This document shows, one piece after another, positions 38,556 to 60,645 of a stretch of 64,000 bases of DNA. The stretch lies in IMG/VR virus record IMGVR_UViG_3300045988_167643. One strand, given 5' to 3'. Below the pieces are notes generated by a model, which saw only the letters and a list, made by a program, of their open reading frames with translations, ran no database searches and had not been told where the DNA came from. The first letter of the stretch is position 1. Each line of letters begins with the position of its first letter. This stretch comes from a virus. The position numbers and the translations under genes are program-made.

Positions 38556-40604
38556 ATGAAGATGTATGATCCGGAAATCTGGAAAAATGAGAACAATGGA
38601 TATGAGGAACTTATTGAAAACATTAAGAAAACTTTTGCATCAAAATTGAAAGACAATGTAAAAACACCATTATTCAGAACAAGCGTATCTGACTTATTTG
38701 ACACATTTCTTTACTATCTTCCAGATGCTTGCAAACAGGAATATACATGTAGAGCTTGTAAACACTTTGTAGATCGATTTGGTGGACTTGTATTTATTAA
38801 AGAAGATGGAACAACTGAGTCTGCTATTTGGAATGTTGAAAATATTCCTGGAATGTTTATTGAGCCAATTACACAGATGAAAGAGATTGTTGAATCTGCA
38901 CAGGTCCAGGATATATTCGTATCAGACTATGTGGATCTTGGAACATATGATACTAATGGATTCCATCATTTTTCTGTAAAACTTCCAAGAGTAATGATCA
39001 ATACATCAAGAGTAAAAAATGCATCACAGGTATCTGCTGAGAAAGCTGAAGATTATGGAATGCTGAAAAGAGCACTTGAGAAGTATTCCATGCCACAGAT
39101 TGATCAGGCACTTAATTTATTAGAATCCGGAAGTTTATATAGAGGTAGCAGCTATGTAGCAATGTGCAAATGGTTTAAGGAAACAAAAGAGAAGATTGCT
39201 TCTATCAATGATCAGCCACAGCACACTAATATGATTTGGAAATATGCTGCTACAGCTCCAAATGGATTTACTCACATTTCCGGAAGTATGTTAGGTACAT
39301 TACTTGACTATATTGTAGATGGTGATGACTTTGATACTATCAAGCGTAAATTTGAGACTAATATGAGTGCCGAGAATTATAGACGTTCACAGTCTGCACC
39401 TACTCAGAGAGCTGTTGAAAGTGCTGAAAAACTTATTGAAAAACTTGGTCTTGCAGATTCACTTAGAAGAAGATATGCAAAACTGGATGAGCTTCCTGAG
39501 AATGAATTTATTTGGAAGAGTAAAACTGAAAAGAAAGATGAAGTAAAGACTGGAGTATTTGCAGGAGTTCAGACTAAAGCTGTAGATAGTAATGAAACAA
39601 AATCTGTAATTCCACAGGTAACTATGACATGGGATAAATTCGGAAAAACAATTCTTCCTACCGCAGATAAATTGGAAGTAAAGGTTGATGGAACAACTCA
39701 TCTTATGGGAATGGTAACAGCTGCGGTTCCGGAATCTGAAAATATTATGAACTGGGATAATCCATTTTCTTGGTATTATCAGAGTGGTATTGATTCTGTG
39801 ATTCGTGAGCGACTTGAAGCAAAAGGTGCAAAATATGAAGGTTGTGAGATCAGATGCTCTCTAATCTGGAATACACGAACAGATTTAGATTTGCATTGTA
39901 TTTGTCCTGATGGAGTAGAAATTTATTTTGGACATAAGAATCACGGATATGGTTCATTGGATGTTGATGCAAATGTTCATGGTGAGACAGTAACACCTGT
40001 TGAGAACATTCGTTGGCCACTTGGTAAAGTTCCAGAAGGACGTTATAAATTCTTTGTTAATAACTATACAAATAGAGCAACCCAGAATCCATATAAATTA
40101 GAGCTTGAAGTAAATGGAAAAATTTATACTTATGATGGAAATCTTATAAGTGATAGTTGTAGAAAAAATACAGACGTAGTATTTGAATTTGATTATTGTC
40201 ATGGCGAAGATCCTAAGTTTACTGCAAATTCTAAAAAGACAGAAACTAAAGAAACTTGGGGAATTAGCAACGGATTCTCAGAAGTTGTTGCAATTATTCC
40301 GTCTCCAAACATGTGGGGAGAAAATCCATATAAACGATCTGGTGAACATACTTTCTTCTTATTGAAAGACTGCAAAGATATGACAGGCGGAGTTGGACGT
40401 GGTTTCTTTACTGAAATGCTTAAGGGTGATTTACAGGAAATTAGAAAAACACTTGAGGCATATACAGCTTCAACACCTATTGAAGGTGAAGATGAAGCAA
40501 GTGCTTGTGGTGTTGGCTACAGTAAAGATAAAGAGTGGAATCTGATTGTAAAAGTGACTACCGGCAACATTGTAAAAATGATTAAGATTGATAGGTTTGA
40601 CTGA
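38556..40604 (+). CDS. large hypothetical protein (682 aa)
   Basis: AAGGAG RBS; N-terminal CxxC; beta-rich segment LIWNTRTDLDLHCICPDGVEIYF...LDVDANV; family not recognised. Confidence 0.65.
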   Translation: MKMYDPEIWKNENNGYEELIENIKKTFASKLKDNVKTPLFRTSVSDLFDTFLYYLPDACKQEYTCRACKHFVDRFGGLVFIKEDGTTESAIWNVENIPGMFIEPITQMKEIVESAQVQDIFVSDYVDLGTYDTNGFHHFSVKLPRVMINTSRVKNASQVSAEKAEDYGMLKRALEKYSMPQIDQALNLLESGSLYRGSSYVAMCKWFKETKEKIASINDQPQHTNMIWKYAATAPNGFTHISGSMLGTLLDYIVDGDDFDTIKRKFETNMSAENYRRSQSAPTQRAVESAEKLIEKLGLADSLRRRYAKLDELPENEFIWKSKTEKKDEVKTGVFAGVQTKAVDSNETKSVIPQVTMTWDKFGKTILPTADKLEVKVDGTTHLMGMVTAAVPESENIMNWDNPFSWYYQSGIDSVIRERLEAKGAKYEGCEIRCSLIWNTRTDLDLHCICPDGVEIYFGHKNHGYGSLDVDANVHGETVTPVENIRWPLGKVPEGRYKFFVNNYTNRATQNPYKLELEVNGKIYTYDGNLISDSCRKNTDVVFEFDYCHGEDPKFTANSKKTETKETWGISNGFSEVVAIIPSPNMWGENPYKRSGEHTFFLLKDCKDMTGGVGRGFFTEMLKGDLQEIRKTLEAYTASTPIEGEDEASACGVGYSKDKEWNLIVKVTTGNIVKMIKIDRFD

Positions 40605-40605
40605 T

Positions 40606-41640
40606 ATGAACATTGAAGAGATTAAGAAAAAAGTAGCTGGTCCGGACTATGATTTTCTGAGAAACAATGAACACCTTGGCTCCAACATTATTTTGTTGGG
40701 GTTAGGTGGAAGCTATAGCTATGGTACTCAAAAATCTGACGGAACGAGCGATTTGGATTTGAGGGGAATTTGCTTAAATAAAAAGCATGAAATTCTTACT
40801 AACCAGAATTTTGAACAATTTATCAACGAAGATACAGATACAACTATTTATGCGTTTAATAAGATTATTTATCTTATGGCAGCTTGCAACCCTAATGTTA
40901 TTGAGCTAGGAGGGCTTAAACCAGAACATTATTTATATATTCATCCAATTGGACAAGAAATATTAGATAATGCACATATGTTTTTATCTAAAAGGGCAAT
41001 TCATTCATTTGGTGGTTATGCCTCGCAACAATTAAGAAGAACAAATAACAAGGCAGCTCGTTTAGTAGGACAAACAGAGCGTGAACAACATATTTTAAAT
41101 TCGATAAACAATGCATTTTATACTTTTCCTACAAAATATTTTACATTTCCGGATGATTCTATAAAACTATATGTAGATAAGGCGGTTCAAGAAGACTATG
41201 ATACCGAAGTATTTATGGATATTAATCTAAAGCATTATCCGTTACGTGACTATAAATCTATGTGGTCCGAAATGAATAATATTGTTAAAGATTACTCGAA
41301 AATTGGTAAGCGTAATAAACATGCGGTAGAGCATGGAAAATTAGGTAAGCACATGATGCATTTGGTTCGCCTGTACTATATGTGTTTTGATATTTTGGAA
41401 AATGAGAAGATTATTACATACAGAGAAAAAGAACATTATTTGTTGATGGACATTAGAAATGGTAAATATTTAGATGAAAACAAACAGCCAATTCCAGAAT
41501 TCTTTGAGATGGTAAATGAGTTGGAAAAGAGACTGGAATATGATGCAGAAAACACATCACTTCCAGACAGTCCGGATTATAAAAGAATCAATGAGTTTGT
41601 TATGTCTGTAAACGAAAGAATTGTGAAAGGAGAAATTTAA
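40606..41640 (+). CDS. Pol-beta-superfamily nucleotidyltransferase (RlaP-like)
   Basis: LGLGGSYSYGTQKSDGTSDLDLRGI matches the GS...G...SD.D.RG nucleotidyltransferase motif of the RNA-repair-associated RlaP family (from memory). Confidence 0.5.
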   Translation: MNIEEIKKKVAGPDYDFLRNNEHLGSNIILLGLGGSYSYGTQKSDGTSDLDLRGICLNKKHEILTNQNFEQFINEDTDTTIYAFNKIIYLMAACNPNVIELGGLKPEHYLYIHPIGQEILDNAHMFLSKRAIHSFGGYASQQLRRTNNKAARLVGQTEREQHILNSINNAFYTFPTKYFTFPDDSIKLYVDKAVQEDYDTEVFMDINLKHYPLRDYKSMWSEMNNIVKDYSKIGKRNKHAVEHGKLGKHMMHLVRLYYMCFDILENEKIITYREKEHYLLMDIRNGKYLDENKQPIPEFFEMVNELEKRLEYDAENTSLPDSPDYKRINEFVMSVNERIVKGEI

Positions 41641-41642
41641 TT

Positions 41643-44270
41643 TTGTACGGTTTAAAAAGTAGTGAAGTAGAAAAGCAGAGAGAAAAGTATGGTAGTAATA
41701 AACTGCCAGAGAAAAAGCTGAAAACATGGTTTCAGTTCTTTATGGAAACATTTAAAGATCACATAAATCAGATTCTATTAGCAATGATGATTGTATTTAC
41801 AGTTATTGCAGTGTTTGGACAGGGATCTTATTCAGAACCGATTGGTGTAGCAGTAGTATTATTGGCAATCGCATTGTTAGGAATGAACACCGGACTGAAA
41901 AGCCAGAAAAGTACAAAAGAGTTGAAGGATAGGACATCAGTTCATTATTGTAATGTAATCAGAAATGGAAAAATCGAGCATATCAATACAAATGATTTGG
42001 TTGTCGGTGATCTGGTTATCATTCAGTCCGGAGAAGCCATTCATGCAGATGGTTATCTGGTAGAAGGAAATATAAAAGTTGACAACTCTGTATTGAATGG
42101 AGAGTCAGAGCCTTGCAAAAAAACAGCATGGGATAAAGAAGATTCACCTATCGCATTTGGTGGTCAGAGAAAAGCGGATTCAAGTGATTATACAAATTCT
42201 TACGCACTGTTTTCCGGAACAACGGTAACAGACGGTGAAGGAAAGATGATCGTAACTAATGTTGGTGTTGACACAGTAAACGGTCAGACAATTTCGACCA
42301 TTGATGAAATCGAAGAAACAAAGACTTCCCTGGAAATCCAGTTGGAGGATCTTGCTGGACAGATTAGTAAATTCGGGTATATCGGAGCTTTAATCATTGT
42401 TGTAGCATTGATTATCACAAACATTATCCAGTACGGCGGTATCGCTGAATACTTTGGAATGGGTTGGATTGGTATTTTGAAAAATATTCTTACCATTGCA
42501 GTAACTGCGCTTACCATTATTGTCGCAGCAGTACCAGAAGGACTTCCGTTGATTATTAACCTTATTACCGCGCAGAATGCAAAAGTAATGATTAAACACA
42601 ATGTCCTAGCTAAACACACTAACAAGATTCCAGAAGCAGGTAATATTCAGTTACTTTGTACCGACAAAACAGGAACGCTTACAGTTGGGAAACTTGTTCC
42701 AGTAGAGAATGTAATGGGTGATGGAAAATCTATTATAGAAGATGAAAATACATATAATTTGTTTAAATATAATGTCATCTTAAATAGTAGTGCAATGTTT
42801 GATGAAAATAATAAAATTGTTGGTGGAAATGCCACAGAGAGAGCATTACTTTCTTTAGTTAATGCAGATGAGTATAAGAAAATCACTGGATCTACAACTA
42901 TTGTAAACAAGAAGAGTTTTAATAGTGCAAATAAATTTAGTGCTGTTGAAACAGAATATAACGGTGAGACATTTACATATTATAAAGGTGCTCCAGAGAG
43001 ATTGATTGATGCAGCAACAAAATGCGTGACTCTAAACGGTCTTGAGCCTATTGATAAAGATAAACTTAAAATGATTGTAAGATCATATACCGTTAAAGCA
43101 ATGAGAGTAATTGCTACTGGTTATAGTTCTTCTAAGCTTCCAGAAGATGGATTCCCAAATGATCTTATTATTACATCTTTGGTTGCAATTCGTGATGATG
43201 TTCGTCCGGAAGTACCAGAAGCAGTGGCAAAAATGCACGATGCAGGAGTCCAAGTAATGATGGTAACTGGCGACGTTATCGACACAGCGAAAGCTATCGC
43301 AAAAGATGCTGGATTGATCACAAGTGAATCTGATATTGCAATGTCTGCTATTGACTTTGATGCATTGTCAGATGAAGAGGCAAAAGAAAAACTTCCTTAT
43401 ATTAAAGTTATTGCTAGAGCAACACCAAACACTAAACTTAGAATTGTACGTTTAGCTCAAGAACTTGGTCTTTGTGTAGGTATGACTGGCGATGGAACAA
43501 ATGATGCACCAGCACTGAAAGCTGCAGATGTTGGATTCTCAATGGGATCTGGAACAGACGTATGTAAAGAAGCTGGAGATATTATTATCACAGATGACAA
43601 CTTTGTATCTATCACAGATGCGGTTCTTCTTGGAAGAACATTCATGCACAACGTTATGAAGTTCCTGAAATTCCAATTGCCTATCAATGTAGGTCTGGTA
43701 ATTCTAAGTATTTTATATCCGATCATCATGGCTGTAGAAGCAGTCGCAGCAGTACAGATTCTTGTAATTAACATTGTTATGGATTCTCTTAATTCACTTT
43801 CCTTTGGTGGAGAACCGGCGAAAGATGAATATATGAAAGAAAAGCCTATTCCGAAAGGATCAAAACTTCTTTCAAAAGAAACTATCGGTCAGATTGCAGT
43901 ATCAGTTGTGGCATTTATTGGAATCTTTGGTATTACTTTATTACCACCGGTACAGAAAATTTTCGGAAACAATGAGTCTGTTTATGCCACAGTCAGATTT
44001 GCACTACTCATTATGATGGCAACATTCAACGGATTTAATATTAGAACAGACGGATTCAATCTGTTTAAGGGTATCGGCAAAAATAAACTTTTCATCGAAA
44101 TTGCAGTTGTAATTTTCGCCTTAACATTTGCTCTGGCACAGTTCGGGGGAGATATTATGGGATGTACAGCAATGACGCTTATGCAGTGGGGTGTAACAGT
44201 TGTTTTGGCATTTATGATTATCCCAATTGATTTAGTACGAAAAGCTGTTATAAAAATTAAAAGAAAGTAG
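41643..44270 (+). CDS. P-type cation-transporting ATPase (P2, Ca2+-ATPase-like)
   Basis: CTDKTGTLT phosphorylation site, AVPEGLP (TM4), MVTGDVIDTA, GMTGDGTNDAPALK; 875 aa; TTG start. Confidence 0.85.
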   Translation: MYGLKSSEVEKQREKYGSNKLPEKKLKTWFQFFMETFKDHINQILLAMMIVFTVIAVFGQGSYSEPIGVAVVLLAIALLGMNTGLKSQKSTKELKDRTSVHYCNVIRNGKIEHINTNDLVVGDLVIIQSGEAIHADGYLVEGNIKVDNSVLNGESEPCKKTAWDKEDSPIAFGGQRKADSSDYTNSYALFSGTTVTDGEGKMIVTNVGVDTVNGQTISTIDEIEETKTSLEIQLEDLAGQISKFGYIGALIIVVALIITNIIQYGGIAEYFGMGWIGILKNILTIAVTALTIIVAAVPEGLPLIINLITAQNAKVMIKHNVLAKHTNKIPEAGNIQLLCTDKTGTLTVGKLVPVENVMGDGKSIIEDENTYNLFKYNVILNSSAMFDENNKIVGGNATERALLSLVNADEYKKITGSTTIVNKKSFNSANKFSAVETEYNGETFTYYKGAPERLIDAATKCVTLNGLEPIDKDKLKMIVRSYTVKAMRVIATGYSSSKLPEDGFPNDLIITSLVAIRDDVRPEVPEAVAKMHDAGVQVMMVTGDVIDTAKAIAKDAGLITSESDIAMSAIDFDALSDEEAKEKLPYIKVIARATPNTKLRIVRLAQELGLCVGMTGDGTNDAPALKAADVGFSMGSGTDVCKEAGDIIITDDNFVSITDAVLLGRTFMHNVMKFLKFQLPINVGLVILSILYPIIMAVEAVAAVQILVINIVMDSLNSLSFGGEPAKDEYMKEKPIPKGSKLLSKETIGQIAVSVVAFIGIFGITLLPPVQKIFGNNESVYATVRFALLIMMATFNGFNIRTDGFNLFKGIGKNKLFIEIAVVIFALTFALAQFGGDIMGCTAMTLMQWGVTVVLAFMIIPIDLVRKAVIKIKRK

Positions 44271-44278
44271 GAAAGTAT

Positions 44279-44467
44279 ATGGTTAAAAGAGATAAAGAGT
44301 ACAAGAAAATTGAAAATATAACCTTGTGTTGTTACGCCGTAGGGCTGGGGCTTGCATGTGCAACAAAGTTTCTGCCATTTATCCTTTTAACTGTTATGGC
44401 ATATCCTATTTCATTTCGAGTAGTAGATAATAAATGGAGTGGTAAAAATGCCACTCCTAGAAAATAA
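44279..44467 (+). CDS. small membrane protein
   Basis: 62 aa; [29 protein letters not shown]. Confidence 0.45.
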
Positions 44468-44481
44468 AAGGAGAAAATATT

Positions 44482-45048
44482 ATGGTAAGTTTAGTAAAAG
44501 GACAGAAAGTAGATCTTACAAAAGGAAACGCAGGATTAAAGCAGATTATCGTTGGTTTGGGATGGGATGCAAATAAGTACGATGGTGATAATTTTGATCT
44601 GGATTCGGCAGCATTTCTTCTTGGAACAAATGGAAAAGTAAGAAATTCAGATGATTTCGTATATTATAACAATCTCAAACATTCAAGTTGTGCAGTTCAG
44701 CATATGGGTGACAATCTTACTGGTTTAGGCAATGGAGACGATGAGCAGATTATCGTTGATTTGACAAAGATTCCGGCTGATGTTGAAAAAATTGCATTTA
44801 CAGTAACTATCTATATGGCAGAAGAGAGACTGCAGAACTTCGGTATGGTTTCCAATTCATACATTAGAATGGTAAACAAAGACAATGATGAAGAGATGAT
44901 CCGCTACGACCTGGGAGAAGATTATTCCACAGAAACAGCAATGGTTCTTGGCGAACTGTATCGCCACAACGGAGAATGGAAATTCAATGCTATTGGACAG
45001 GGATATTCCGGTGGTTTACAGGCACTTTGCAGTAGTTTTGGAGTTTAA
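44482..45048 (+). CDS. terD: TerD-domain protein
   Basis: [57 protein letters not shown]. Confidence 0.85.
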
Positions 45049-45066
45049 TGTAGGAGGAAATAAATA

Positions 45067-45720
45067 ATGGCAGTAAGTTTAACAAAAGGGCAAAAAGTAA
45101 ATCTTTCAAAAGCAGTAGAGAAACTGGCAAATGTAACTGTAGGACTTGGATGGGATATGGCACAGAGCGGAAGCAGAATTGATTGTGATTCTTCTGTATT
45201 TGTACTTCGTGAATCCACAAAACGAATTTCAAAGAAAGTGAAATCTGGACTGTTCGGACTTTTTTCAAAGGTAGAAACAGATGAAGTTACAGAATGTAGT
45301 CTGACAAGATCTGATGATATTATTTATTATGGAAATCTTACACATGATAGCGGTTGCGTTAAACATAGGGGTGACAATCTTGTTGGTGGAAAGGGCAAAA
45401 GAAATGATGACGAACAGATTGCGATTGATTTGAAGAAAATGCCGCCGGATATTAAGAAGTTGGTAGTGGTTGTGAATATCTACAACTGTAGAGTTAAGGG
45501 GCAGCATTTTGGAATGATCAAAAACTGTTATGCAAGAATTGTAGATGATGCAACCAAAGAAGAAATTTGTCGCTACAATCTTACAGATGGTTATGACAAA
45601 TGTACAGCACTTATCGTTGGAGAGCTGTATCGTGACGAAAATGATGAATGGCAGTTTAAAGCTATCGGTGAGGGAACACAGGATGGTAGTATTTCTGATA
45701 TGGCAAAAAGATACAAATAA
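45067..45720 (+). CDS. terD: TerD-domain protein with internal insertion
   Basis: VGLGWD, IDCDSSVFVL, HRGDNLVGGKGKRNDDEQI, DEWQFKAIGEG; about 30 extra residues after the first block. Confidence 0.8.
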   Translation: MAVSLTKGQKVNLSKAVEKLANVTVGLGWDMAQSGSRIDCDSSVFVLRESTKRISKKVKSGLFGLFSKVETDEVTECSLTRSDDIIYYGNLTHDSGCVKHRGDNLVGGKGKRNDDEQIAIDLKKMPPDIKKLVVVVNIYNCRVKGQHFGMIKNCYARIVDDATKEEICRYNLTDGYDKCTALIVGELYRDENDEWQFKAIGEGTQDGSISDMAKRYK

Positions 45721-45750
45721 CGAAGGAAATAATGAAGGAGATAAAGTGAT

Positions 45751-46329
45751 ATGTCAGTAAGTCTTAAAAAGGGAGATAAAGTTGCACTGTCAAAGGACAG
45801 TATTGTAAATAGAATTTCCGTTTGCCTTGGTTGGGACACAGCAAAGTATGATGATGATGGAGATTTTGATTTGGATGCTTCTGCATTTGTTGTTACCAAA
45901 GCTGGTATAACAAGATCTGATAATGATTTTGTATTTTACAATAACCTGAAACATCCGAGTGGTGGAGTAATCCATAGCGGAGATAATTTAACAGGCTTTG
46001 GAGAGGGTGATGATGAAGTCATCAAAGTGGATCTTGAAAAACTTCCAAAATATGCGGACAGAGTAGTATTTTGTGTGACCATTTTTGAGGCAGAACGCCG
46101 TATGCAGAATTTTGGCATGGTGGAAAACTCATATATCCGTATTGTAGATGATGTAACTGGAAACGAAATTATGAGATACGATCTCAAAGAGAAGTTCGGA
46201 AATTCTACAGCTATCATTGCTGGTGAAATTTATCGTGATGAATCAAAATGGAAGTTTCATGCAGTAGGAGAAGGACGGGATGGCGGTCTTTTAGAACTGT
46301 GCAAAGAATTTGAAGTAGAGGTAGAATAA
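45751..46329 (+). CDS. terD: TerD-domain protein
   Basis: VCLGWD, DFDLDASAFVV, HSGDNLTGFGEGDDEVI, NFGMVENSYIRI, SKWKFHAVGEG. Confidence 0.85.
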   Translation: MSVSLKKGDKVALSKDSIVNRISVCLGWDTAKYDDDGDFDLDASAFVVTKAGITRSDNDFVFYNNLKHPSGGVIHSGDNLTGFGEGDDEVIKVDLEKLPKYADRVVFCVTIFEAERRMQNFGMVENSYIRIVDDVTGNEIMRYDLKEKFGNSTAIIAGEIYRDESKWKFHAVGEGRDGGLLELCKEFEVEVE

Positions 46330-46330
46330 A

Positions 46331-47098
46331 ATGACAGTAGGAACAAGTAATGTAGTTATCTTTTGTCTCTCAATCTTGGGAGTAATTATTATTGCGGCAC
46401 TGATTTTAAACAAAACATTTTTCAAGCAACTCGTAATTAAGTTCAGAGGAAGAACGGAAGAAATCGCAAGACAGGACGCTTCTACGCCGGATGGTGCAAG
46501 AGATTATTTCAATAATGCGATCAGAGAAAAAGAGACTCTGTACAGCAAAGCAGAACAGTCTTATACAGAGATTGCCGGTAAACTGGATGAAGCAGAAAAA
46601 GAACAGTACGACCTCAAAAAAGAACTTATGAAGATTGATAAGTCTATCAATAATTGTCTGGATTCTGGTGATGATGATACTGCAAGACAGTATGCTATGA
46701 AGAAGATTACTATTCAGGGTAAGATTGAGACGTTGAAAGATACTATTGAAGAATACAAAAAAGCAAAAGAGCAGCAGAATGAAATCCGTAGTGCTATTAA
46801 GCAGGAACTCGATGAACTCAAAGAGGAAAAAGAAAGAACGGTTTATCAAATGGAAGCAGATCAGCAGATTATTTCTCTGCATGAGGGCATGAATGCAAGT
46901 GCAAGCACAAACGAAAGTGACCGTATGCTTGAAAGAGTGCGCGAGGGTGCGAAGAAAACAAGAGAACGTGCAGCAGGAGCGCAGATTGCTTATGACACAA
47001 GTACAGAGGCAATGGATCGCAGAATGGAAACACAGGAAAGAAATCGTGCGGCTGATGAAGTACTTGCTGAGATGAAACGAAGGAGAAACAACAAATAA
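46331..47098 (+). CDS. PspA/IM30-like coiled-coil protein with N-terminal TM
   Basis: TM VVIFCLSILGVIIIAALIL, then heptad-rich region with CLDSGDDDTARQYAMKKITIQGKIETLK resembling the PspA ALxxGdEdLAreAL block. Confidence 0.45.
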   Translation: MTVGTSNVVIFCLSILGVIIIAALILNKTFFKQLVIKFRGRTEEIARQDASTPDGARDYFNNAIREKETLYSKAEQSYTEIAGKLDEAEKEQYDLKKELMKIDKSINNCLDSGDDDTARQYAMKKITIQGKIETLKDTIEEYKKAKEQQNEIRSAIKQELDELKEEKERTVYQMEADQQIISLHEGMNASASTNESDRMLERVREGAKKTRERAAGAQIAYDTSTEAMDRRMETQERNRAADEVLAEMKRRRNNK

Positions 47099-47193
47099 TG
47101 ATTGTTATAAATATCGGGGCATTTATCATTTGTATTGCAACAGCTTTTATTGTAGGTTTCTGCACTGGAAAAGTAAAGAAGAAAAAGAATTAA
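47098..47193 (+). CDS. 31-aa TM peptide
   Basis: ATG overlaps previous stop (TAATG); MIVINIGAFIICIATAFIVGFCTGKVKKKKN. Confidence 0.35.
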   Translation: MIVINIGAFIICIATAFIVGFCTGKVKKKKN

Positions 47194-47573
47194 GAAGTTG
47201 AATAGTGGAATGTTGGCTTAGAAGCAGCCATCATCTAAGGAGTAGGGCTTTAAGTCTAAAGGTATGAAAAACTTCAATCGAAGATAAACGAGTAAGAGAA
47301 TAGGATGTAAAGAGTTATGATACGTCACCCCTTAACAGGTAAGGACAAGTCCCCTTTTGGCGTAATAGCACACCACTATTAATATTTTAGATGCATTTAA
47401 AAAATTAGGTCGTGCAGTGGCAGAATGGACATATGCGTATAATAATGCTTTATTTACAAAATTAGGCATATTATAATGGCGAATTTATGTCAGTAAACAA
47501 AATTGATAAAATTTGCTTATATAGGGTTCAAATCCCTATCTGCACATTAAATCTTAAAGAAAGGAGAATAAAA

Positions 47574-48953
47574 ATGATAGAGGGTATTGTATTACCAGAG
47601 TCCGTAAAATCTATATTTTACGTACTTAATCGTAATGGTTATGAAGCCTATCTTGTAGGTGGAGCTGTACGAAATTCTATTATAGGATTACCTGTACACG
47701 ACTGGGATATCTGCACAAATGCCTTGCCGGAAGACGTATGTAAATTATTCCGTAGTAAAGGATTTCGTGTAGTAGAAACAGGCTTGCAGCATGGCACTGT
47801 AACTGTCATGGTAAATTATCGTGGATACGAGATAACTACTTATAGAACTGATGGAAAATATACTGATAGTCGCCATCCAGATTCTGTAAAATTTATCGGA
47901 AGTATTCACGAAGATTTAGCAAGACGTGATTTTACAATGAATGCAATTGCTTATAATGACGATGATGGATTTATTGATCCGTTCAATGGACTAAAAGATA
48001 TTGAGAATAAAGTTATACGATGTGTAGGCACACCTGTTGATAGATTCACAGAAGATCCGTTACGTATTATGAGAGCTGTAAGGTTTGCCGCCCAATTAGG
48101 ATTCCATATTGAAAACTATACCAATATTGCAATGGTACAAACAAATGATGGTTTGTCAAAGATTTCTGCAGAAAGAATACAATCAGAGCTGTGTAAGATT
48201 CTTATTTCAGATCATCCTGAGTATGTACTTGATTATTATATTGATATTTCACCGGCAATTCCTGAGTTAAGTAAGATGATGGGATGCTCTCAAAATAACA
48301 TGTATCACATTTATGATGTATGGAATCACACCAGATTTTCATTAACAGCTTGTAGAATACATGAATTAGAGACCAGACTTGCTATCTTATTGCACGATAT
48401 TGGTAAACCAGAATCAAAAACTGTAGATCGAGGAATTGAGCACTTCTATGGACATGCTGTTAAAAGTGCAGAGATTACTGAATCACTACTTCGTAGACTA
48501 AAATTTTCCAACGAGATTAGGGAATCTGTAGTAGAACTTGTAGCAAGTCATGATATGGAAATTGTACCAAAACCAAATAAAATTAAAAAATATCTGAATA
48601 AACTTGGTGAAGCACAACTTAGAAGACTGTTAGATGTAAGATTCTGCGATATTATGGCACACAATCCGTATTATGCAAAAGATCGTCTATGGGAAATTTT
48701 TCGTGCAGAAGAAATATTAAATGAAGTTCTGGCAGAAGCGAAGTGTTTTTCTATAAAAGATTTGGCTATAAATGGGAAGGATATTATGGAACTTGGCGTA
48801 CCGGAAGGACCAGATGTCGGAAAATGGCTTAAATATGCATTAGAGGAAGTAATTAATGACAGGTTGGATAACGGCAAAGAAGATATTCTAAACGATATTG
48901 AGGCTAAATTATTTGCAGAAAGAGAAGAAGGTAATGACGAGGAAATGTCCTAA
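47574..48953 (+). CDS. cca: CCA-adding tRNA nucleotidyltransferase
   Basis: ATG 47574 after AAAGGAGAATAAAA. Blocks GGAVRNSIIGLPVHDWDICT, RDFTMNA, EDPLRIMRAVRFA and HD motif LLHDIGKP. Confidence 0.85.
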   Translation: MIEGIVLPESVKSIFYVLNRNGYEAYLVGGAVRNSIIGLPVHDWDICTNALPEDVCKLFRSKGFRVVETGLQHGTVTVMVNYRGYEITTYRTDGKYTDSRHPDSVKFIGSIHEDLARRDFTMNAIAYNDDDGFIDPFNGLKDIENKVIRCVGTPVDRFTEDPLRIMRAVRFAAQLGFHIENYTNIAMVQTNDGLSKISAERIQSELCKILISDHPEYVLDYYIDISPAIPELSKMMGCSQNNMYHIYDVWNHTRFSLTACRIHELETRLAILLHDIGKPESKTVDRGIEHFYGHAVKSAEITESLLRRLKFSNEIRESVVELVASHDMEIVPKPNKIKKYLNKLGEAQLRRLLDVRFCDIMAHNPYYAKDRLWEIFRAEEILNEVLAEAKCFSIKDLAINGKDIMELGVPEGPDVGKWLKYALEEVINDRLDNGKEDILNDIEAKLFAEREEGNDEEMS

Positions 48954-51637: not shown

Positions 51638-51811
51638 ATGATTTCGTTCTACATTTTAGTAATTATTGGAGCAATTTTATTATGGATTTTACTTGCAAAT
51701 ATCGGTACATTCAAGTTTATCGGATGGATTTCATCACATTTAAGTAATGGTGTTAAAGATGCAATGGAAGATAAAGAAAATGAAAACAAAGAGGATAAAA
51801 AAGATGAGTAA
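51638..51811 (+). CDS. small membrane protein (57 aa)
   Basis: Below track cutoff; AGAGGGG RBS; FYILVIIGAILLWILLANIG TM; overlaps the SPFH start. Confidence 0.4.
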   Translation: MISFYILVIIGAILLWILLANIGTFKFIGWISSHLSNGVKDAMEDKENENKEDKKDE

Positions 51812-52766
51812 AAAAAGAACTGGTGGAATTATTGCTGGAGCTGTTATTGTTGGTGGACTTGCATTGGGTGGTTTAAACACAGTTAAGATTGACCCTGGTT
51901 ATATTGGGATTATATACGATGCTACTCATGGTGGAGTTAATGGCGAAACTATGAAAGAGGGATGGAACTTTAAAACGCCTACACAGAAAGTAACGGAATA
52001 TTCAATCGCCCTCGAGCAGTCTTATCTTACTAAAGATGATAAGGGGGATTCTGATAAAGACGAAAGCTTTAATATTCCAACATCTGATGGAAAATCAATC
52101 AATGTAGATGTGGAATTCTCATATCGTTTTGATGAGGATAGAATTACAGAAATTTTCAAAACATTTAAAGGTAAGAGTGGTGAAAGTATTAAAAATACAT
52201 TCATTAAACCTAAGATTATTGCGTGGTCTCAGGAAGTATCTGCAAAATATCCTGTAACTGATGTATTTGGTGATAAAAGGCAGGAGCTTAATCAGGCACT
52301 TGATGATTATCTCAAAGCAAAATTCGACAAATACGGAATTATTATTGATACTGTAAACTTTACAAGAATTGAAACAGATGAAGAGACTACAGCTGCAATT
52401 CAGAAAAAGGTAACAGCACAGCAGGATCAGGAGCTTGCAACAATTGAAGCTAAGACTGCGAAGATTAATGCTGAAAAAGAGAAAGAAGTTGCTCTTATCA
52501 CAGCAGAGCAGAATAAAGAAACCGCACAGATTAATGCTGAACAGGCAAAAATCAAAGCAGAAGGTCAGGCAGAAGCTACTAAGATTGCTGCAGAAGCCGA
52601 AGCAGAAGCAAACAAGAAGATTGCAGAGAGCTTAACTCCAGAACTTATTGAGAAAATTAAGATGGAGCGTTGGAATGGCGAACTTCCAATGGTTAGTGGA
52701 TCTTCCGGAACAATTATTAATATGACAGACGATGCCAATGAAACAACTGTCGAAGAAGAGAAATAA
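51804..52766 (+). CDS. SPFH/band-7 (prohibitin-like) membrane protein
   Basis: ATG 51804; N-terminal TM GGIIAGAVIVGGLALGG; SPFH blocks IDPGYIGIIYD, INVDVEFSYRF, IIIDTVNFTRIE; Ala/Glu/Lys-rich coiled-coil tail. Confidence 0.7.
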   Translation: MSKKRTGGIIAGAVIVGGLALGGLNTVKIDPGYIGIIYDATHGGVNGETMKEGWNFKTPTQKVTEYSIALEQSYLTKDDKGDSDKDESFNIPTSDGKSINVDVEFSYRFDEDRITEIFKTFKGKSGESIKNTFIKPKIIAWSQEVSAKYPVTDVFGDKRQELNQALDDYLKAKFDKYGIIIDTVNFTRIETDEETTAAIQKKVTAQQDQELATIEAKTAKINAEKEKEVALITAEQNKETAQINAEQAKIKAEGQAEATKIAAEAEAEANKKIAESLTPELIEKIKMERWNGELPMVSGSSGTIINMTDDANETTVEEEK

Positions 52767-53492: not shown

Positions 53493-54247
53493 TTTATATA
53501 ACAGGTGACACGCATGGTGATGTAACAAGACTAAGTATGGATAATTTTCCAGAGCAGAAAACGTTTACCGATCAAAATGAAAATTATGTAATTATTTGTG
53601 GTGACTTCGGATTGGTTTGGAATTATCTAACTGAAACACATTCAGAAAAGTATTGGCTTAACTGGCTTGAGAATAAAAAGTTTACAACTCTTTTTGTTGA
53701 TGGTAATCACGATTGTCATCCTAGACTTGCAGACTATCCTGTAAAAGAATGGAATAGTGGACTGGTCCATGAGATTAGACCACATGTATTGCATCTGATG
53801 AGAGGACAAGTTTTTAATATTGATGGCTGCACAATATTTACTTTTGGTGGTGCAAGATCCCATGATATTGAGAATTTGCTTGATTTAGATGATCCAGACT
53901 TTACAGAGAAACAAAAACAACTTAGAAAAGATAATTTATTTTATAGAGTAAAAGGCATCTCATGGTGGGAAGAAGAAATGCCAACTCAAGAAGAGATGCA
54001 AATTGGATTAGATAATTTAGAAAATAACAACTGGAAAGTTGATTATATAATTACACATGACTGTACTTCAAGTACAAAAGCTTTGTATAGTCATGGGTCT
54101 TTTAAGACAGATGAACTAAATGCATATTTAGAAGAAATTAAATATAAGTGTGAATTTAAGAAATGGTTCTTCGGACACTTACATGATGATAAGCAGATAA
54201 ATGATAAAGAAATTTTACTATATCACCAGATTGTGAGGATTTGGTAA
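53489..54247 (+). CDS. calcineurin-like metallophosphoesterase
   Basis: IYITGDTHGD, ICGDFG, VDGNHD, ITHDC, GHLH; GTG start overlapping the upstream stop. Confidence 0.7.
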   Translation: MIYITGDTHGDVTRLSMDNFPEQKTFTDQNENYVIICGDFGLVWNYLTETHSEKYWLNWLENKKFTTLFVDGNHDCHPRLADYPVKEWNSGLVHEIRPHVLHLMRGQVFNIDGCTIFTFGGARSHDIENLLDLDDPDFTEKQKQLRKDNLFYRVKGISWWEEEMPTQEEMQIGLDNLENNNWKVDYIITHDCTSSTKALYSHGSFKTDELNAYLEEIKYKCEFKKWFFGHLHDDKQINDKEILLYHQIVRIW

Positions 54248-55023
54248 TGGGATATTGGAATAGGAAAACTGAATTAAAGAAAAAGGCGAATGTTCATACA
54301 AATAAAATGGAAGAGCTATATAGCTTGGAAATTACAGAATGTGTAAACAATACAAAAGTATATGACCAAGAGTTCTATTGTAAAAAAGAATGCGATAGTA
54401 AGCCGGATTTTCATCAGAAAATCACTGTAGAAGATATGGATAGTGTACAGGCAATATTTTCTTATGAAAACACAGGTAAAACAGCAGTTCTTAATTTTGC
54501 AAGCTATAAAAATCCAGGTGGCAAATTTTTAGATGGATCTTCTGCACAGGAAGAAATGCTTTGCCACAGTTCCTTCCTATATAATGTGTTATCTGAATTT
54601 GATGAAGATTATTATGAATTCAATAGAATGACTAAGAACTTCGCATTATATACAAATCGTGCATTATATAGTCATGATGTTTTATTCATAAGAGGCGATG
54701 AAGAGATTTGTGTAGATGTTATTACTTGTGCAGCACCAAACAAAACTGCAGCTCAGAAATATTGTGGTAAATCTGATTTTGATTGTAATTCTGCAATGGT
54801 TGATCGTATACATTTTATGCTTGATATTGCACAAGAAGAGGAAGTTAATACATTAATTCTTGGCGCATGGGGATGTGGTGTATTTGGTAATGATGCAGAA
54901 TTTGTTGCGAATAGTTTCAAAAAAGAATTAGAAGAATATTATACCGATACTTTTGAGAATATTATATTTGCGATTCCTGGCGGTACGAACTATATGGTAT
55001 TCAAGAGGGTGTTTGGTAAATAA
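54247..55023 (+). CDS. microbial PARG-like macrodomain protein (TIGR02452/DUF2263-like)
   Basis: VLNFASYKNPGGKFLDGSSAQEEMLCHSS, ITCAAPN, LILGAWGCGVFGNDAEFVA. Confidence 0.7.
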   Translation: MGYWNRKTELKKKANVHTNKMEELYSLEITECVNNTKVYDQEFYCKKECDSKPDFHQKITVEDMDSVQAIFSYENTGKTAVLNFASYKNPGGKFLDGSSAQEEMLCHSSFLYNVLSEFDEDYYEFNRMTKNFALYTNRALYSHDVLFIRGDEEICVDVITCAAPNKTAAQKYCGKSDFDCNSAMVDRIHFMLDIAQEEEVNTLILGAWGCGVFGNDAEFVANSFKKELEEYYTDTFENIIFAIPGGTNYMVFKRVFGK

Positions 55024-55041: not shown

Positions 55042-56274
55042 ATGTTAAATTATACACGATATTTTAATGCCGGTGCTTTGCTACATAATTTCCAAGATGC
55101 AGCAAATTTAACAAAACAGCTTGGAATTAAAAATGCCATTGAATACAACGTGAATGATTTTTTATTTACGATTGGAAAAAATTATTTTGTTGATAAGATT
55201 AATAGGCTTCAAGACAAATTAATTGTTGGATTTTTTACATCATATTCTGATGATATTAAAAATATTTGCTGGTATTTAAATAAACTCGATCCAAAACTAT
55301 ACAAAAAATATATTGGTGATATAGAGGAATATAAACAGTGCTTTGTGAGAAACGATAGAGTTTATTATATGCTTCCATATGAACGAAAATTTGTATTTAC
55401 TTGCAAAGATAAAACTAAAGTGGTTGCCAAATTAAGTAAGGGTAGTTTTTTAGATTATGCAAATATTTATTTTATCGGTCCTCATAGAAAAGAACATGCA
55501 GATTTTTTTAGAAAATTTTGCGATAAATATAATAGTAAATATATGACAATAGATACTCTGCAAATTGATAAAACAGATAAGATGACAAATGAACTTGACG
55601 ATGAAATTGATGGTATTTCAGAAAACGCAATTATATTCCCAGAAAAAAATGAAATATTTAGCTATTTGGACGCATGGTTGAATTCTGAAACGTATTTTAC
55701 ATCATGTGGAATTAATCACAAAATTGGCATCCTTCTTTATGGTGAACCTGGTACTGGTAAAACCACTTTTGCCAAGGTCTTGGCAACAAAGTACGACTTA
55801 ACTCTTGTTAAGTTCACATTGAATGATTTATCAAAATTAATTTCAAAGAATGAATTTTGGAAAAAATTAGAAGATTCTGTTGTAGTGTTAGAAGATATCG
55901 ATGTTCTGGTAAGCAAACGTGATAATAGTGTTACCTCTGCAGACAAAGAAAATTTTCAAGCATTATTGCAACTCTTAGATGGAATTAACTCATGTAAGAA
56001 AACAATATTTTTAGCAACAACAAATTATATTGATAGACTAGATCCTGCTCTTATTCGAGATGGACGATTTGACATTAAGATTGAAATGAAAAATTTTGAT
56101 CACGATGAAGCGGTAAAAATGTGTAATAAATTTGAAGCAGATTCGGAAGTAATTCTTAGAGATGAACAGTTTCCAATTAATCCTGCTTACTTGCAGAACA
56201 AAATCATTACGCTGCAGATGAAAGAGATTAATGAAAAACTAAAACAAAAAGCTCAAAGAATTGGAAATAAATAA
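55042..56274 (+). CDS. AAA+ ATPase (BCS1-like C-terminal module)
   Basis: Walker A GILLYGEPGTGKTTFAKVLA, Walker B VVVLEDIDVL, ATTNYIDRLDPALIRDGRFD. Confidence 0.75.
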   Translation: MLNYTRYFNAGALLHNFQDAANLTKQLGIKNAIEYNVNDFLFTIGKNYFVDKINRLQDKLIVGFFTSYSDDIKNICWYLNKLDPKLYKKYIGDIEEYKQCFVRNDRVYYMLPYERKFVFTCKDKTKVVAKLSKGSFLDYANIYFIGPHRKEHADFFRKFCDKYNSKYMTIDTLQIDKTDKMTNELDDEIDGISENAIIFPEKNEIFSYLDAWLNSETYFTSCGINHKIGILLYGEPGTGKTTFAKVLATKYDLTLVKFTLNDLSKLISKNEFWKKLEDSVVVLEDIDVLVSKRDNSVTSADKENFQALLQLLDGINSCKKTIFLATTNYIDRLDPALIRDGRFDIKIEMKNFDHDEAVKMCNKFEADSEVILRDEQFPINPAYLQNKIITLQMKEINEKLKQKAQRIGNK

Positions 56275-57363: not shown

Positions 57364-57435
57364 AGCATCTTAGTGTAATGGTTATCACGGATGACCTTGG
57401 ATCATCAGATGTTGGTTCGATTCCAACAGGTGCCG
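57364..57435 (+). tRNA. tRNA-like gene, anticodon position UUG (Gln) but non-canonical
   Basis: Cloverleaf: acceptor AGCATCT/AGGTGCC (A1:C72 mismatch), D arm GTGT..TCAC, anticodon stem GATGA/TCATC, loop CCTTGGA (C at position 33), T arm GTTGG-TTCGATT-CCAAC; no encoded CCA. Confidence 0.5.
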
Positions 57436-57506
57436 TTAACTCAGAAATGAGTATTTCAAAGTTAAAAATTTAAAGAATAAAATTCAATTTAAAGGAGAAG
57501 AAAATT

Positions 57507-58157
57507 ATGACAAAAGAAACTATGACAGTACATAAAGCGTTAGCAGAAATTAAAATCCTTAAAGACAGAATCCAGAGTGAGATTTACAATTCAATTTTTG
57601 TATCTTGCAAAAAAAATTCTCAGTCAAAAATTTCTGGAATGGATGTTGATGAATATGAGAAGATTATTACAGGATGTTACGACAAAGATGTAGATCTTAT
57701 GAGTAGACTTGAAGCTCTGCAGAGAGCAGTAATGCTTTCAAATGCAGTAACAAAAGTTAAGATTAAAATTGGAGAAAATGAAGAAGAACGTACTGTAGCA
57801 GAAGCAATCAACATGAAAAATAACAGTATGATGTTCAAGAGACAGATGCTTGACAGAATGCAGCAACAGCTTTCTCAGGCACAGGCAAAAACAAACAAAG
57901 AGAATGAGATTCTTGAAAGTAAGTCAGAAAATTATGTAACTGGTCTTTTTGGACAGAAAGAGGGTAAAACTTCTACCGATGAAGTTACAAAAGCCAAACA
58001 GCAGTACATTGATCTTAACACATGGGAGTTGATTGATCCGATAAATGTGCAAAATAAAATCCGTGTTTTATCTGACGAAATTTCATCATTTGAAGCAGAA
58101 GTAGACTCTGTTTTAAGCACAAGTAACGCATTAACAACAGTTACAATTGAGTATTAA
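57507..58157 (+). CDS. hypothetical coiled-coil protein
   Basis: 216 aa; AAAGGAGAAG RBS. Confidence 0.6.
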   Translation: MTKETMTVHKALAEIKILKDRIQSEIYNSIFVSCKKNSQSKISGMDVDEYEKIITGCYDKDVDLMSRLEALQRAVMLSNAVTKVKIKIGENEEERTVAEAINMKNNSMMFKRQMLDRMQQQLSQAQAKTNKENEILESKSENYVTGLFGQKEGKTSTDEVTKAKQQYIDLNTWELIDPINVQNKIRVLSDEISSFEAEVDSVLSTSNALTTVTIEY

Positions 58158-58435
58158 AGAATGGTTAGTGAATTATTTGCTGAAAATTGTATAAACGATT
58201 TTTGACCAATATGATAGCTAAATAGCCATTGCTATACGAACAGTTGTATAAAAGATTTCCTTCATTGCTTATCGAAAATCACTGAACTATAATCCTTTAG
58301 TCTTTCAGTCAGCATAGAGTAAAGTAAAAAATTAAACAAGCTGGCCTTAAAAATTAAATGGTTTAGACTCATACTCTAAATAATTTTACTAAGTTAGATA
58401 AAATTGTGCAGAAGTGCATTATTACTAATGCATGT

Positions 58436-58554
58436 AAAGTTTAAAGATAGAAAGTTCAAACCTTAAAGTTCAAAATTCAAAGCTTATTTTTGATATAAAG
58501 TTCACGTAGTAAAGTTGATAAGTTCCAAAGTTTGATAAAAACCTTGAGAAAGTT
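58436..58554. repeat. cluster of seven AAAGTT motifs
   Basis: AAAGTT at 58436, 58451, 58465, 58497, 58511, 58527 and 58549, in the extended form (T/G)AAAGTT(C/G/T)A; preceded by the TGCATTA/TAATGCA inverted repeat. Confidence 0.6.
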
Positions 58555-58683
58555 TTGGTAGCATGATTATATCGGCTCTGTGGTTTGTACAAGGCTGATA
58601 AGTGGTGAAGTTCATCTTATAAATAAATCAATGCGGTTATTAAAACCTTGTTTCTTAGTTCTAACAAAGCCGCAGTTGGAACG

Positions 58684-58752
58684 TCCTGGATAGTTAAATG
58701 GTTATAACACATGAAACCCATGTATTTGCCGGTTCGAATCCGCATTCAGGAT
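58684..58752 (+). pseudogene. tRNA-like element with truncated anticodon arm
   Basis: Acceptor TCCTGGA/TTCAGGA, D arm GTTA-AATGGTTA-TAAC, and a T arm with canonical TTCGAAT loop but a bulged C. The anticodon arm is reduced to CATG-AAACC-CATG. Confidence 0.45.
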
Positions 58753-58813
58753 TTGGGTTAGTTACCCAAAAAAGATTTCTTATTTCTTATACCTCCTAAA
58801 GTGTTGATGAGGT

Positions 58814-58880
58814 GGGGCATGACTTCGATGGCGAAGAGACTTTAAATAGTCTGTACTGGGTTCGACTCCCAGATGTCCTA
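58814..58880 (+). pseudogene. tRNA-like element with 6-nt anticodon loop
   Basis: Acceptor GGGGCAT/ATGTCCT, D arm CTTC-GATGGC-GAAG, stem AGACT/AGTCT closing the loop TTAAAT, perfect T arm CTGGG-TTCGACT-CCCAG; 67 nt. Confidence 0.45.
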
Positions 58881-59227
58881 TTAGAGATTTCAGATATGTG
58901 GTGCCACAAAAACGCTTCTCAATATCCGAGTTGCCGTACCGTTTGACTACACAATATCGTGTATGATCCACCTACAGAGCGCAGTAGTTCTGGAATCTCG
59001 AAGCTATACGAAAGATTTGTTTACTGCTAGAGCAATCGAATAGTACGGTTAAACTTTTACATATTTAGTAACAGCAGAGTAGCAGCTGTGCGTGAAAAAG
59101 TGTATATATCTTCGGAAGTTCAATCAAACTTACAGTATGTGGTTATGGTTCTTGTGGCGATGAGCCTTATAAGAAGATCAGAGTACTCTAAAAAGGTTTG
59201 GTTTACAAAGTTGTTTCAATTTTAGCA

Positions 59228-60571: not shown

Positions 60572-60645
60572 ATTTGCTCAGAGATGAGCAGATTAAACAG
60601 AAGTATGATATGGTATTTCCCTCACCAAAGAGAATACTTTAAGAA

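Follow-up and report, generated by a model that had tools for sequence, protein, structure and literature searches.

The DNA examined here is a stretch of 64,000 nt (hereafter, the window) from the IMG/VR virus record IMGVR_UViG_3300045988_167643, and the subject of this study is a block of seven genes at positions 41643-47193. The block encodes a predicted Ca2+ pump of the P-type ATPase class, a small hydrophobic protein of 62 aa (s62), three tandem TerD-domain proteins, a PspA/IM30-like protein and a transmembrane (TM) micro-protein of 31 aa (s31). We found that the order pump, TerD gene or genes, PspA-like gene recurs on about 124 viral contigs. Because the same order is kept on so many contigs, the block is far beyond chance, and the linkage of the pump to the TerD and PspA-like genes is supported as evolutionarily conserved, not accidental. 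An earlier note on this DNA had described the pump as coupled to these genes, and the coupling was borne out by the viral contigs as well as by a linkage in bacteria. We consider it somewhat more probable than otherwise that the block represents a minimal Ter-type module adapted to phages, which would keep Ca2+ in the cytoplasm and damage to the membrane under control during infection, and which has been long inherited and reshuffled within an extensive clade of big gut phages.

The conservation of the block was assessed by searching IMG/VR in three ways, with the pump, with a profile of the PspA-like family, and with the PspA-like protein of a second form of the module (variant B, described below). 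The pump search returned 39 viral loci, and TerD followed by the PspA-like gene was present in every locus with enough downstream sequence. In the 80 loci returned by the profile search, TerD lay directly upstream of the PspA-like gene in all, and the pump lay further upstream wherever the flank sufficed, except in locus L116; these loci included clades with pumps 48-50% identical and PspA-like proteins 51-58% identical. The variant-B search gave 41 loci, 38 of which contained the pump, the other 3 being ended by contig ends, and pump identity was as low as 46-50% in the distant variant-B clades. The union of the three sets, taken by contig name, amounts to about 124 distinct contigs. Around the module, the flanking genes (for RlaP, the CCA-adding enzyme, a 682-aa protein and LemA) were reshuffled, while the internal order of the module was constant. 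The pump, TerD and PspA-like genes were shown to be under purifying selection, with dN/dS values of 0.05-0.11 for the pump, about 0.1 for TerD1, 0.09-0.21 for TerD2, about 0.09-0.13 for TerD3 and 0.04-0.05 for the PspA-like gene; the value for s31 was 0.19-0.32, and selection on s62 was weakly resolved. Among GenBank phages, a megablast search with the block gave no match, and tblastn matches to the pump were all at or below 39% identity, most of them in bacterial fragments deposited as phage. The earlier statement that P-type ATPases are very unusual phage cargo is therefore true of cultured phages, but such pumps had already been published in 2025-26 for the Jug phages and 85 other gut phages (PMC12880540).

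All seven open reading frames (ORFs) were present on the plus strand at exactly the positions given in the earlier note. They form a tight string, with gaps of 2 (from the upstream RlaP gene to the pump), 8, 14, 18, 30, 1 and -1 nt; the claim that no gap exceeds 18 nt did not hold, since TerD2 and TerD3 are separated by 30 nt. The gene upstream of the pump encodes a 350-aa RlaP nucleotidyltransferase, the stop codon of which lies 2 nt before the pump start. A strong GGAG/AGGAG Shine-Dalgarno (SD) site precedes every gene of the block. Promoter and terminator consensus scans of the block performed no better than on shuffled sequence and gave no convincing internal terminator, the 293-nt intergenic region 3' of the block showed no unusual structure (z = -0.04), and Rfam had no match in the block or adjoining sequence.

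Downstream of the pump and s62, the module was found in two forms. Variant A, the form in the window, consists of three TerD genes, the PspA-like gene and s31, sometimes preceded by a vWA/TerF-like gene, and variant B consists of a vWA/TerF-like gene, one TerD gene with a C-terminal extension and the PspA-like gene. The copine-related vWA/TerF-like domain, present in variant B and in some variant A relatives, is absent from the module of the window. The closest relatives of the window have pumps 96-99% identical and flanks 93-99% identical to its own, yet they carry variant B, with TerD and PspA-like proteins about 33% identical to those of the window. When the window was aligned with locus L010 by blastn, identity was 96.4% up to position 44439 and 92.7% from position 47182, with no nucleotide homology between. 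The breakpoints of the swap thus lie inside the 3' end of s62 (44439) and in the last codons of s31 (47182), and they delimit an exchangeable cassette at 44440-47181, comprising the 3' end of s62, the three TerD genes, the PspA-like gene and s31. The comparison with L011 gave a mosaic of dS values, 0.23 for the pump and near 0 for TerD1, TerD2 and the PspA-like gene, and both deep subclades of the pump were found to hold both cassette types. Taken together, the distribution of the cassettes, the breakpoints and the mosaic dS indicate that the cassettes have been exchanged repeatedly. Since TerD and the PspA fold are retained in both cassettes, the exchange argues that the pump needs this pair beside it.

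The module has also been interrupted or lost in some relatives. In L041 (IMGVR_UViG_3300045988_166876, 4410-6000), an insertion sequence (IS) of the ISNCY family interrupts the pump gene near window position 42300; the nearest copies of this element are from Clostridium and Enterococcus, and its transposase is 56% identical to that of copies on Clostridium plasmids. In another relative (L048/L140), the equivalent of window positions 42382-47182 is deleted, which removes most of the pump and TerD. A tyrosine recombinase is encoded near the module of L009.

A pump followed by three TerD genes was likewise found in bacterial chromosomes. In an abundant gut bacterium (L131/L132), the order is pump, three TerD genes and an AIM24 gene, beside the S10 ribosomal operon. 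The stretch 12808-17048 of these loci contains, after the TerD genes, the AIM24-domain protein and a 370-aa protein without a Pfam match, and the third TerD carries an N-terminal extension of about 110 aa. In L133, the pump and three TerD genes are followed by genes for a rhomboid protein, YceG, TelA, C-C lyase, PRTase (phosphoribosyltransferase)/TRSP and StiP. Locus L002 (MT836648.1), labelled 'Bacteriophage sp.' and actually bacterial, has PRTase/TRSP, StiP, C-C lyase, YceG, TelA and three TerD genes, then a P-type ATPase. The pump of L001 (MT840059.1) belongs to the same abundant gut bacterium as L131/L132. In fact, L001, L002 and L175 (OR848199.1), which were deposited under the names 'Bacteriophage sp.' or 'Listeria phage LM 4-x', are really fragments of bacterial chromosomes, as seen from a full Ter cluster, from MetRS and TatD genes, or from near-identity to the gut-bacterial pump-TerD locus beside the S10 operon; such mislabelled records inflate the apparent number of phage P-type ATPases. 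In gut Bacillota, the Ca-ATPase thus appears as a regular component of Ter clusters, in the same subfamily and in the same order, pump before three TerD genes, as in the phage block.

The relationship between the phage and bacterial pumps was analysed in a neighbour-joining tree with 200 bootstrap replicates, not by maximum likelihood. The phage pumps were monophyletic (200/200), and together with a cellular tier that includes the TerD-linked pumps they excluded a Listeria P2 pump, a Bacteroidota pump and MgtA (200/200). The TerD-linked bacterial pumps fell in the sister group of the phage clade, and the window pump was 37% identical to them and collinear from end to end. The Listeria outgroup was rejected as a representative of LMCA1, as it is a P2-type pump with motifs that are not those of LMCA1; the comparison with LMCA1 in this study is that of the PDB match only. 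Given the bacterial precedent for the gene order, the tree placement and the collinearity at 37% identity, the most natural interpretation of the phage module is that the pump and three-TerD core of a Bacillota Ter cluster was captured long ago, and that the module has gained a phage-specific, TM-anchored PspA-fold protein (phrog_33389).

The block is not recent host DNA, a possibility that the earlier note had named as one that would overturn its reading. A pattern scan of 185,579 species genomes, sensitive to close relatives only, gave two loci, one being a Mariniphaga pump at 30% identity and the close one a 173-kb contig with the same phage module, in a 'Treponema' metagenome-assembled genome (L049). 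This contig was discarded as host evidence, as it carries phage neighbours in addition to the phage module. In an exhaustive search of 1.84 billion representatives, the top group consisted of eight full-length proteins at 45-66% identity, and the rest were at or below 41%. One of the eight, P0365, shares 97% identity with one of the sampled phage pumps, and the other seven fell within the phage clade in the tree, so that no cellular pump exceeded about 41% identity. The GC content at third codon positions (GC3) was 0.26-0.35 for the block genes, near the 0.19-0.28 of the phage backbone genes, in contrast to the overall GC of 42-60% of the bacterial counterparts.

The pump gene (41643-44270, plus strand, TTG start) encodes a protein of 875 aa, which we typed as a PMCA-type (P2B-like), probably single-site Ca2+ P-type ATPase from Pfam, TIGR01517, PDB matches and ion-site residues. 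The motifs on which the earlier note had relied, DKTGT, PEGLP and TGDGTNDAPALK, are all present, and the catalytic motifs DKTGT and TGDGTNDAP are kept in all phage clades. The protein has all four Pfam domains of the class (Cation_ATPase_N, E1-E2, Hydrolase and Cation_ATPase_C). Its score against TIGR01517, the model of PMCA-type Ca2+ pumps, was 514.9 bits, a marginal pass of the cut-off of 507.05 and the sole one, the scores against the other NCBIfam P-type subfamily models being far under their cut-offs. The best PDB matches were Arabidopsis ACA8, Listeria LMCA1 and human PMCA1/2. The ion-site segments VPEGLPL, LVINIVMDSL and QLPINVGLV align with VPEGLPL, WVNLIMDTL and QLTVNVAALV of ACA8. 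Since the Glu of PEGLP in M4 and the Asn/Asp of M6 are kept, and the position of the site-I Glu of SERCA (Glu771, M5) is occupied by Leu, a single Ca2+ site is predicted, as in PMCA. No calmodulin-binding or autoinhibitory extension was found. In the A domain, the canonical TGES motif is replaced by NGES, in which the Glu is kept and Thr is changed to Asn; the phage-type pumps, and the TerD-linked bacterial pumps related to them, have NGES or NGET throughout, possibly as a signature of the subfamily. These features support the assignment to the Ca2+ type, as proposed in the earlier note, and to neither the heavy-metal nor the K+ pumps; a grouping with such pumps and a lack of TerD linkage in other genomes were among the findings that the note had held to be decisive against it, and neither was obtained.

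The three TerD genes, which encode cytosolic proteins, were confirmed by strong matches to Pfam TerD (PF02342; threshold 25.3 bits), with 283.6 bits for TerD1 (44482-45048), 208.2 for TerD2 (45067-45720) and 240.7 for TerD3 (45751-46329), all on the plus strand; the corresponding E-values were 7e-85, 1e-61 (in two stretches) and 1e-71. TerD1 is a canonical TerD domain and matched the Klebsiella TerD structure 2KXT with E = 1e-71. Klebsiella TerD, as known from this nuclear magnetic resonance structure, binds Ca2+. The sequence GDN(R/L)TGxGDGDDE together with DxD is what we take, from the work on 2KXT, to be the Ca2+-binding loop motif. TerD1 and TerD3 (GDNLTGFGEGDDE) have an intact loop, keeping GDNxTGxGxGDDE with DLD. 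TerD2 is of the 'IDCD' type, with DCD and a degenerate loop (GDNLVGGKGKRNDDE), and it is this middle paralogue that carries the expected insertion, of about 27-30 aa. In a tree of the paralogues, the three types were each conserved and had orthologues in bacterial clusters, TerD2 grouping with the bacterial paralogues L002_T3 and L001_T1, and TerD3 forming the conserved T3 clade across phage lineages.

Other components of classical Ter clusters were sought in the window. Probing by tblastn with two phage TerC proteins, and with the TelA, YceG, PRTase, C-C lyase and StiP proteins of L002, detected none of them, and no Pfam TerC match was found in the block; the reported absence of TerC and TelA therefore holds. 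No Pfam match to TerB was found among the seven block proteins, and no separate TerB probe was run. The earlier suggestion that other genes of the window supply the classical Ter partners was mostly not borne out by Pfam, as no match was obtained for the 'vWA' gene at 11612, the 'PRTase' gene at about 61603 or the 'phosphoesterase' gene at 53489. The phosphoesterase at 49122 matched a PHROG phosphoesterase family but only weakly Metallophos_2 in Pfam, and the AAA+ protein at 55042 is a real AAA ATPase but a generic, IetA-like one.

The PspA-like gene (46331-47098, plus strand) encodes a protein of 255 aa with an N-terminal TM segment and a long helical hairpin, which we assigned to the PspA/Vipp1 fold (ESCRT-III superfamily) by profile and fold searches. 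Its score against Pfam PspA_IM30 (PF04012) was 22.4 bits, under the gathering threshold of 33.9. The assignment made in the earlier note stands despite this score, because many homologues of 55-90% identity have precomputed PF04012 matches, because the family profile matched only PspA/Vipp1 in the PDB (E = 2e-5, with homology from about residue 56), and because the fold search agreed. The AlphaFold2 model had a mean pLDDT (predicted local distance difference test) score of 80.5, mostly above 90 in the hairpin at residues 53-223, and the top 14 Foldseek matches were all Vipp1/PspA, with probability 1.0 and TM-scores of 0.46-0.66. The protein thus has the fold of canonical PspA/Vipp1 (IM30) and resembles them in sequence, weakly but specifically, from helix alpha1 to helix alpha5. 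Unlike these, it has a true TM helix (residues 8-26, strongly hydrophobic with a Kyte-Doolittle value of 3.29) instead of or ahead of the N-terminal amphipathic helix alpha0, and is paired with the 31-aa TM micro-protein. The family is phage-specific (phrog_33389) and includes gp247 of Bacillus phage G; the adjoining gp246 was considered as a TerD candidate and proved not to be one by Pfam. In one 359-aa gene call, P0182, a TerD domain is fused to the PspA-like protein, which may be a real fusion, a frameshift or a merge of gene calls; a real fusion would be further evidence of the two acting together.

The two small membrane proteins predicted in the earlier note were both confirmed as ORFs. 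The gene for s31 (47098-47193, plus strand; MIVLNIGxF...GF..G+KKK) encodes a single-pass TM protein; its start overlaps the stop of the PspA-like gene by 1-4 nt, and it is predicted to be translationally coupled to that gene. It is conserved across relatives, 3' of both cassette types and down to PspA identities of about 51-58%. The hydrophobic s62 (44279-44467, plus strand) has one or two predicted TM segments and an SD site, and begins 8 nt after the ATPase stop. Its homologues occur in both cassette variants and in clades with pumps about 50% identical, and are missing from some lineages. It stays with the 3' end of the pump gene and is possibly a subunit or regulator of the pump.

The window genes all lie on the same strand, at a GC content of about 32%, and include tRNA genes, the cluster of which spans 57364-60572; PHROG matches were to an RNA ligase/Pnkp, a PurZ-like enzyme, HNH endonucleases, a CCA-adding enzyme and several phage-only families. 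On these grounds the window is a large phage, in agreement with the viral origin assigned to it. Human gut samples contain related metagenomic contigs with lengths of up to 222-282 kb. The backbone proteins had their best cultured matches in phages of Bacillota (Brevibacillus Sundance, Bacillus SP-15, SPbeta-like and Twort-like phages), and the TerD genes of the block were nearest to those of Bacillota and their phages. From the backbone matches, the strong SD usage, these TerD affinities and the ISNCY element in one relative, we infer that the host of the clade is a member of Bacillota, probably a species of Clostridia. The phage is probably lytic, and the block lies in a context of RNA repair and nucleotide metabolism.

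If the block is indeed a phage-adapted Ter-type module, it might work as follows. The membrane of the infected cell would be breached by genome entry, superinfecting phages, bacteriocins or pore-forming suicide effectors of the host, and Ca2+, abundant in the gut lumen, would leak into the cell. The TerD proteins would bind or buffer the Ca2+ or relay a signal. PspA/Vipp1 proteins are ESCRT-III-family membrane stabilisers, and a PspA-like polymer, anchored in the membrane through its TM helix and s31, might stabilise or reseal the bilayer and preserve the proton-motive force. The unregulated pump would export Ca2+, probably in exchange for H+, and reset the system, while s62 would probably act on the pump, by analogy with the TM micropeptide regulators of P-type ATPases. 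The net effect would be a host cell kept energised until lysis. The earlier note had proposed an effect on Ca2+ and membrane homeostasis or a blunting of membrane-targeting abortive infection, which is plausible and agrees with the proteins that make up the block. The function of TerD and Ter has been unclear for decades, and the phage block would represent Ter reduced to a Ca2+ pump, TerD and a membrane-anchored PspA-fold protein, a set small enough to express; the hypothesis it yields, that TerD is the link between Ca2+ and membrane integrity, can be tested.

A more specific form of this hypothesis, which we regard as speculative and rather unlikely, is that the TerD proteins sense Ca2+ and, where the membrane is damaged, recruit or activate a PspA-fold polymer of the ESCRT-III type, the P-type pump resetting the Ca2+ signal. 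If true, it would be a prokaryotic or phage counterpart of the eukaryotic Ca2+-triggered membrane repair in which ALG-2 or annexin is followed by ESCRT-III; the optional copine-related protein of vWA/TerF type would serve as an additional membrane adaptor dependent on Ca2+, and the phage operon a minimal Ter system that explains resistance to pore-forming colicins, phages and tellurite.

Several points weigh against a Ca2+ and membrane-damage module. The case for this clade is built from sequence and predicted structure, and the ion specificity of the pump is likewise read from its residues and from a TIGR01517 score barely over the cut-off. Related P2 pumps (P2A/SPCA relatives) can carry Mn2+. 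The A domain has NGES instead of TGES, though this is subfamily-wide, and the Ca2+ loop of TerD2 is degenerate in the window. The module is dispensable in relatives, as judged from the IS in L041 and the deletion in L048, and it is absent from L116. The Bacillota host is inferred. In the Jug phages, the pump and TerD genes are in separate operons (PMC12880540), so that the linkage of the two is not universal.

Other explanations were considered as well. The module might serve superinfection exclusion or defence against competitors, blocking the entry or replication of competing phages and bacteriocins rather than supporting the replication physiology of its own phage. The ter operons are known to confer resistance to pore-forming colicins and to phages, plasmid ter operons being associated with Phi (phage inhibition) and PacB (pore-forming colicin resistance); the module behaves as accessory-like cargo, exchangeable and missing from some relatives; genes involved in conflict typically show rapid swapping of cassettes, and the tyrosine recombinase near the L009 module hints at temperate relatives. 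However, no block protein matched the PADLOC defence models, the strong purifying selection and very deep conservation suit phage housekeeping better than an arms-race gene, and the block is surrounded by genes for RNA repair and nucleotide metabolism, in a phage that is large and probably lytic. We regard this explanation as unlikely. A change of substrate, in which the pump exports Mn2+ or another divalent cation in place of TerC and the TerD proteins chaperone or buffer the metal, seems to us quite improbable; the module would then amount to 'tellurite/metal resistance' in a phage form. TerC belongs to a family of Mn2+ exporters in Bacillus, and in the Bacillota phages LysYB1 and YungSlug the TerD genes are followed by TerC and not by a pump, so that the pump and TerC occupy equivalent positions; the marginal TIGR01517 score and the Mn2+ transport of the P2A/SPCA relatives point the same way. 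Against this, the ion-site residues are patterned as in ACA8/PMCA (Glu in M4, QLxxN without an acidic residue in M5, and NxxMD in M6), the best structural relatives of the pump are all Ca2+ pumps, and the motif with which 2KXT binds Ca2+ is matched by the TerD loops.

The pump might also be a Ca2+ auxiliary metabolic gene that merely lies beside independent, functionally uncoupled TerD stress genes, as could be argued from the separate transcription units, in different places, of the ATPase and terD in the Jug phages (PMC12880540) and from the commonness of TerD alone in phages (239 GenBank records). This is very unlikely, because the adjacency and order are kept on about 124 contigs down to 46-50% pump identity, survive two alternative cassettes and the rearrangement of all flanking genes, and are found independently, as pump-TerD adjacency, in bacterial chromosomes. 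The chance that the block is recent host DNA, mis-assembly or contamination is close to nil. The GC content of the block (37%) is somewhat over the window mean (32%), and several GenBank 'phage' records with P-type ATPases are bacterial fragments; however, the species genomes yielded a single close relative, itself a contig carrying the phage module, identities outside the phage-type clade stop at about 41%, the GC3 of the block resembles that of the backbone, and the same junctions occur on dozens of independent contigs. We thus favour the phage-adapted Ter-type module as the explanation of the block.

Several other features of the window were noted. An RNA-repair set comprises a Pnkp/RNA-ligase fusion (19523-21721), the RlaP nucleotidyltransferase (40588-41640) and the CCA-adding enzyme with an HD domain (47487-48953), the latter two genes being the immediate flanks of the Ca2+/TerD block. 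A short adenylosuccinate-synthetase homologue (12429-13526; PF00709) matches the PHROG family of PurZ (phrog_1211, E = 2e-69), and the phage may synthesise 2-aminoadenine (Z) DNA. A RAGATH-27 RNA (58261-58346, plus strand; 85.4 bits against an Rfam gathering score of 76.1) was found within the tRNA cluster, as was a tRNA at 58684-58752 that was picked up by Rfam and missed by ARAGORN. An SPFH/Band-7 membrane-scaffold protein is encoded at 51747-52766, and a microbial-type poly(ADP-ribose) glycohydrolase at 54241-55023 adjoins the IetA-like AAA ATPase (55042-56274); these two may be counter-defence genes. A gene of the LemA family (13529-14092) and its partner, which encodes about 250 aa (14397-15143), lie 27 kb from the block in the window; the same pair is immediately upstream of the pump in L007/L008 (6.6-7.9 kb) and immediately downstream of the module in L143 (8.9-10.1 kb), and may be loosely attached to the same membrane toolkit.

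When compared with bacterial Ter clusters (terZABCDEF; Bacillus yceCDEFGH), the phage block shares the tandem TerD paralogues, including an 'IDCD' type with an insertion, and the phage module shares an optional vWA/TerF-like partner, a membrane transporter and a helical membrane-associated protein. By tblastn, the phage version is without TerC, TelA, YceG and the PRTase/C-C lyase/StiP genes for a 'nucleoside-like metabolite', whereas the TM-anchored PspA-fold protein and s31 were not seen in the bacterial clusters examined. A comparative analysis of bacterial Ter stress-response clusters was reportedly made by Anantharaman, Iyer and Aravind in 2012; our literature search, which that survey lay outside, found no paper that links TerD to a Ca-ATPase. 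The closest cultured homologues of the TerD proteins (57-59% identity) are in Herelleviridae, namely Lysinibacillus phage LysYB1 and Bacillus phage YungSlug. Like the window block, these Bacillota phages have TerD paralogues beside a membrane ion-transport protein, but their transporter is TerC and not a P-type ATPase, their TerD genes number two against three in the window, and they have no PspA-like gene. An 856-aa 'ATPase domain protein' upstream of TerD in both phages is no P-type ATPase and has no Pfam match. A virus-encoded, functional Ca2+ P-type pump is also known from Chlorella viruses (M535L/C785L; Bonza et al. 2010, as cited in PMC12880540); this is a eukaryotic giant virus system, in which TerD or PspA partners are not known, and it is likened here by description.

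The nearest parallel is provided by the Jug phages, gut phages of 360-402 kb with predicted Bacteroides/Phocaeicola hosts and pumps nearest to those of Bacteroidaceae (PMC12880540). In these phages, the pump is co-transcribed with an upstream gene of 77-91 aa, and the terD regions are separate operons, one of the three terD genes adjoining a 'pspA-like' gene. The Jug phages and the present clade thus have in common a PMCA/LMCA1-like Ca2+ pump in a large gut phage, a small membrane ORF by the pump, and terD and 'pspA-like' genes in the same genome, and a manipulation of host Ca2+ is proposed for both. They differ in that TerD and the PspA-like gene directly follow the pump in one string in the present clade, with the small ORF downstream and not upstream, and in that the backbone and SD usage of this clade point to phages of Bacillota. 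The present clade may be among the '81 other huge phages' of that report, the text and preprint supplements of which mention neither a linkage of pump, TerD and PspA nor an exchange of cassettes. Phage Ca-ATPases as such are thus already published, and what is new here is the conserved pump-TerD-PspA operon, its exchangeable cassettes and its probable derivation from a pump-containing Ter cluster. These results extend the report on phage Ca2+ pumps to a second abundant group of gut phages, in which the pump is part of a larger module and not a lone auxiliary gene.

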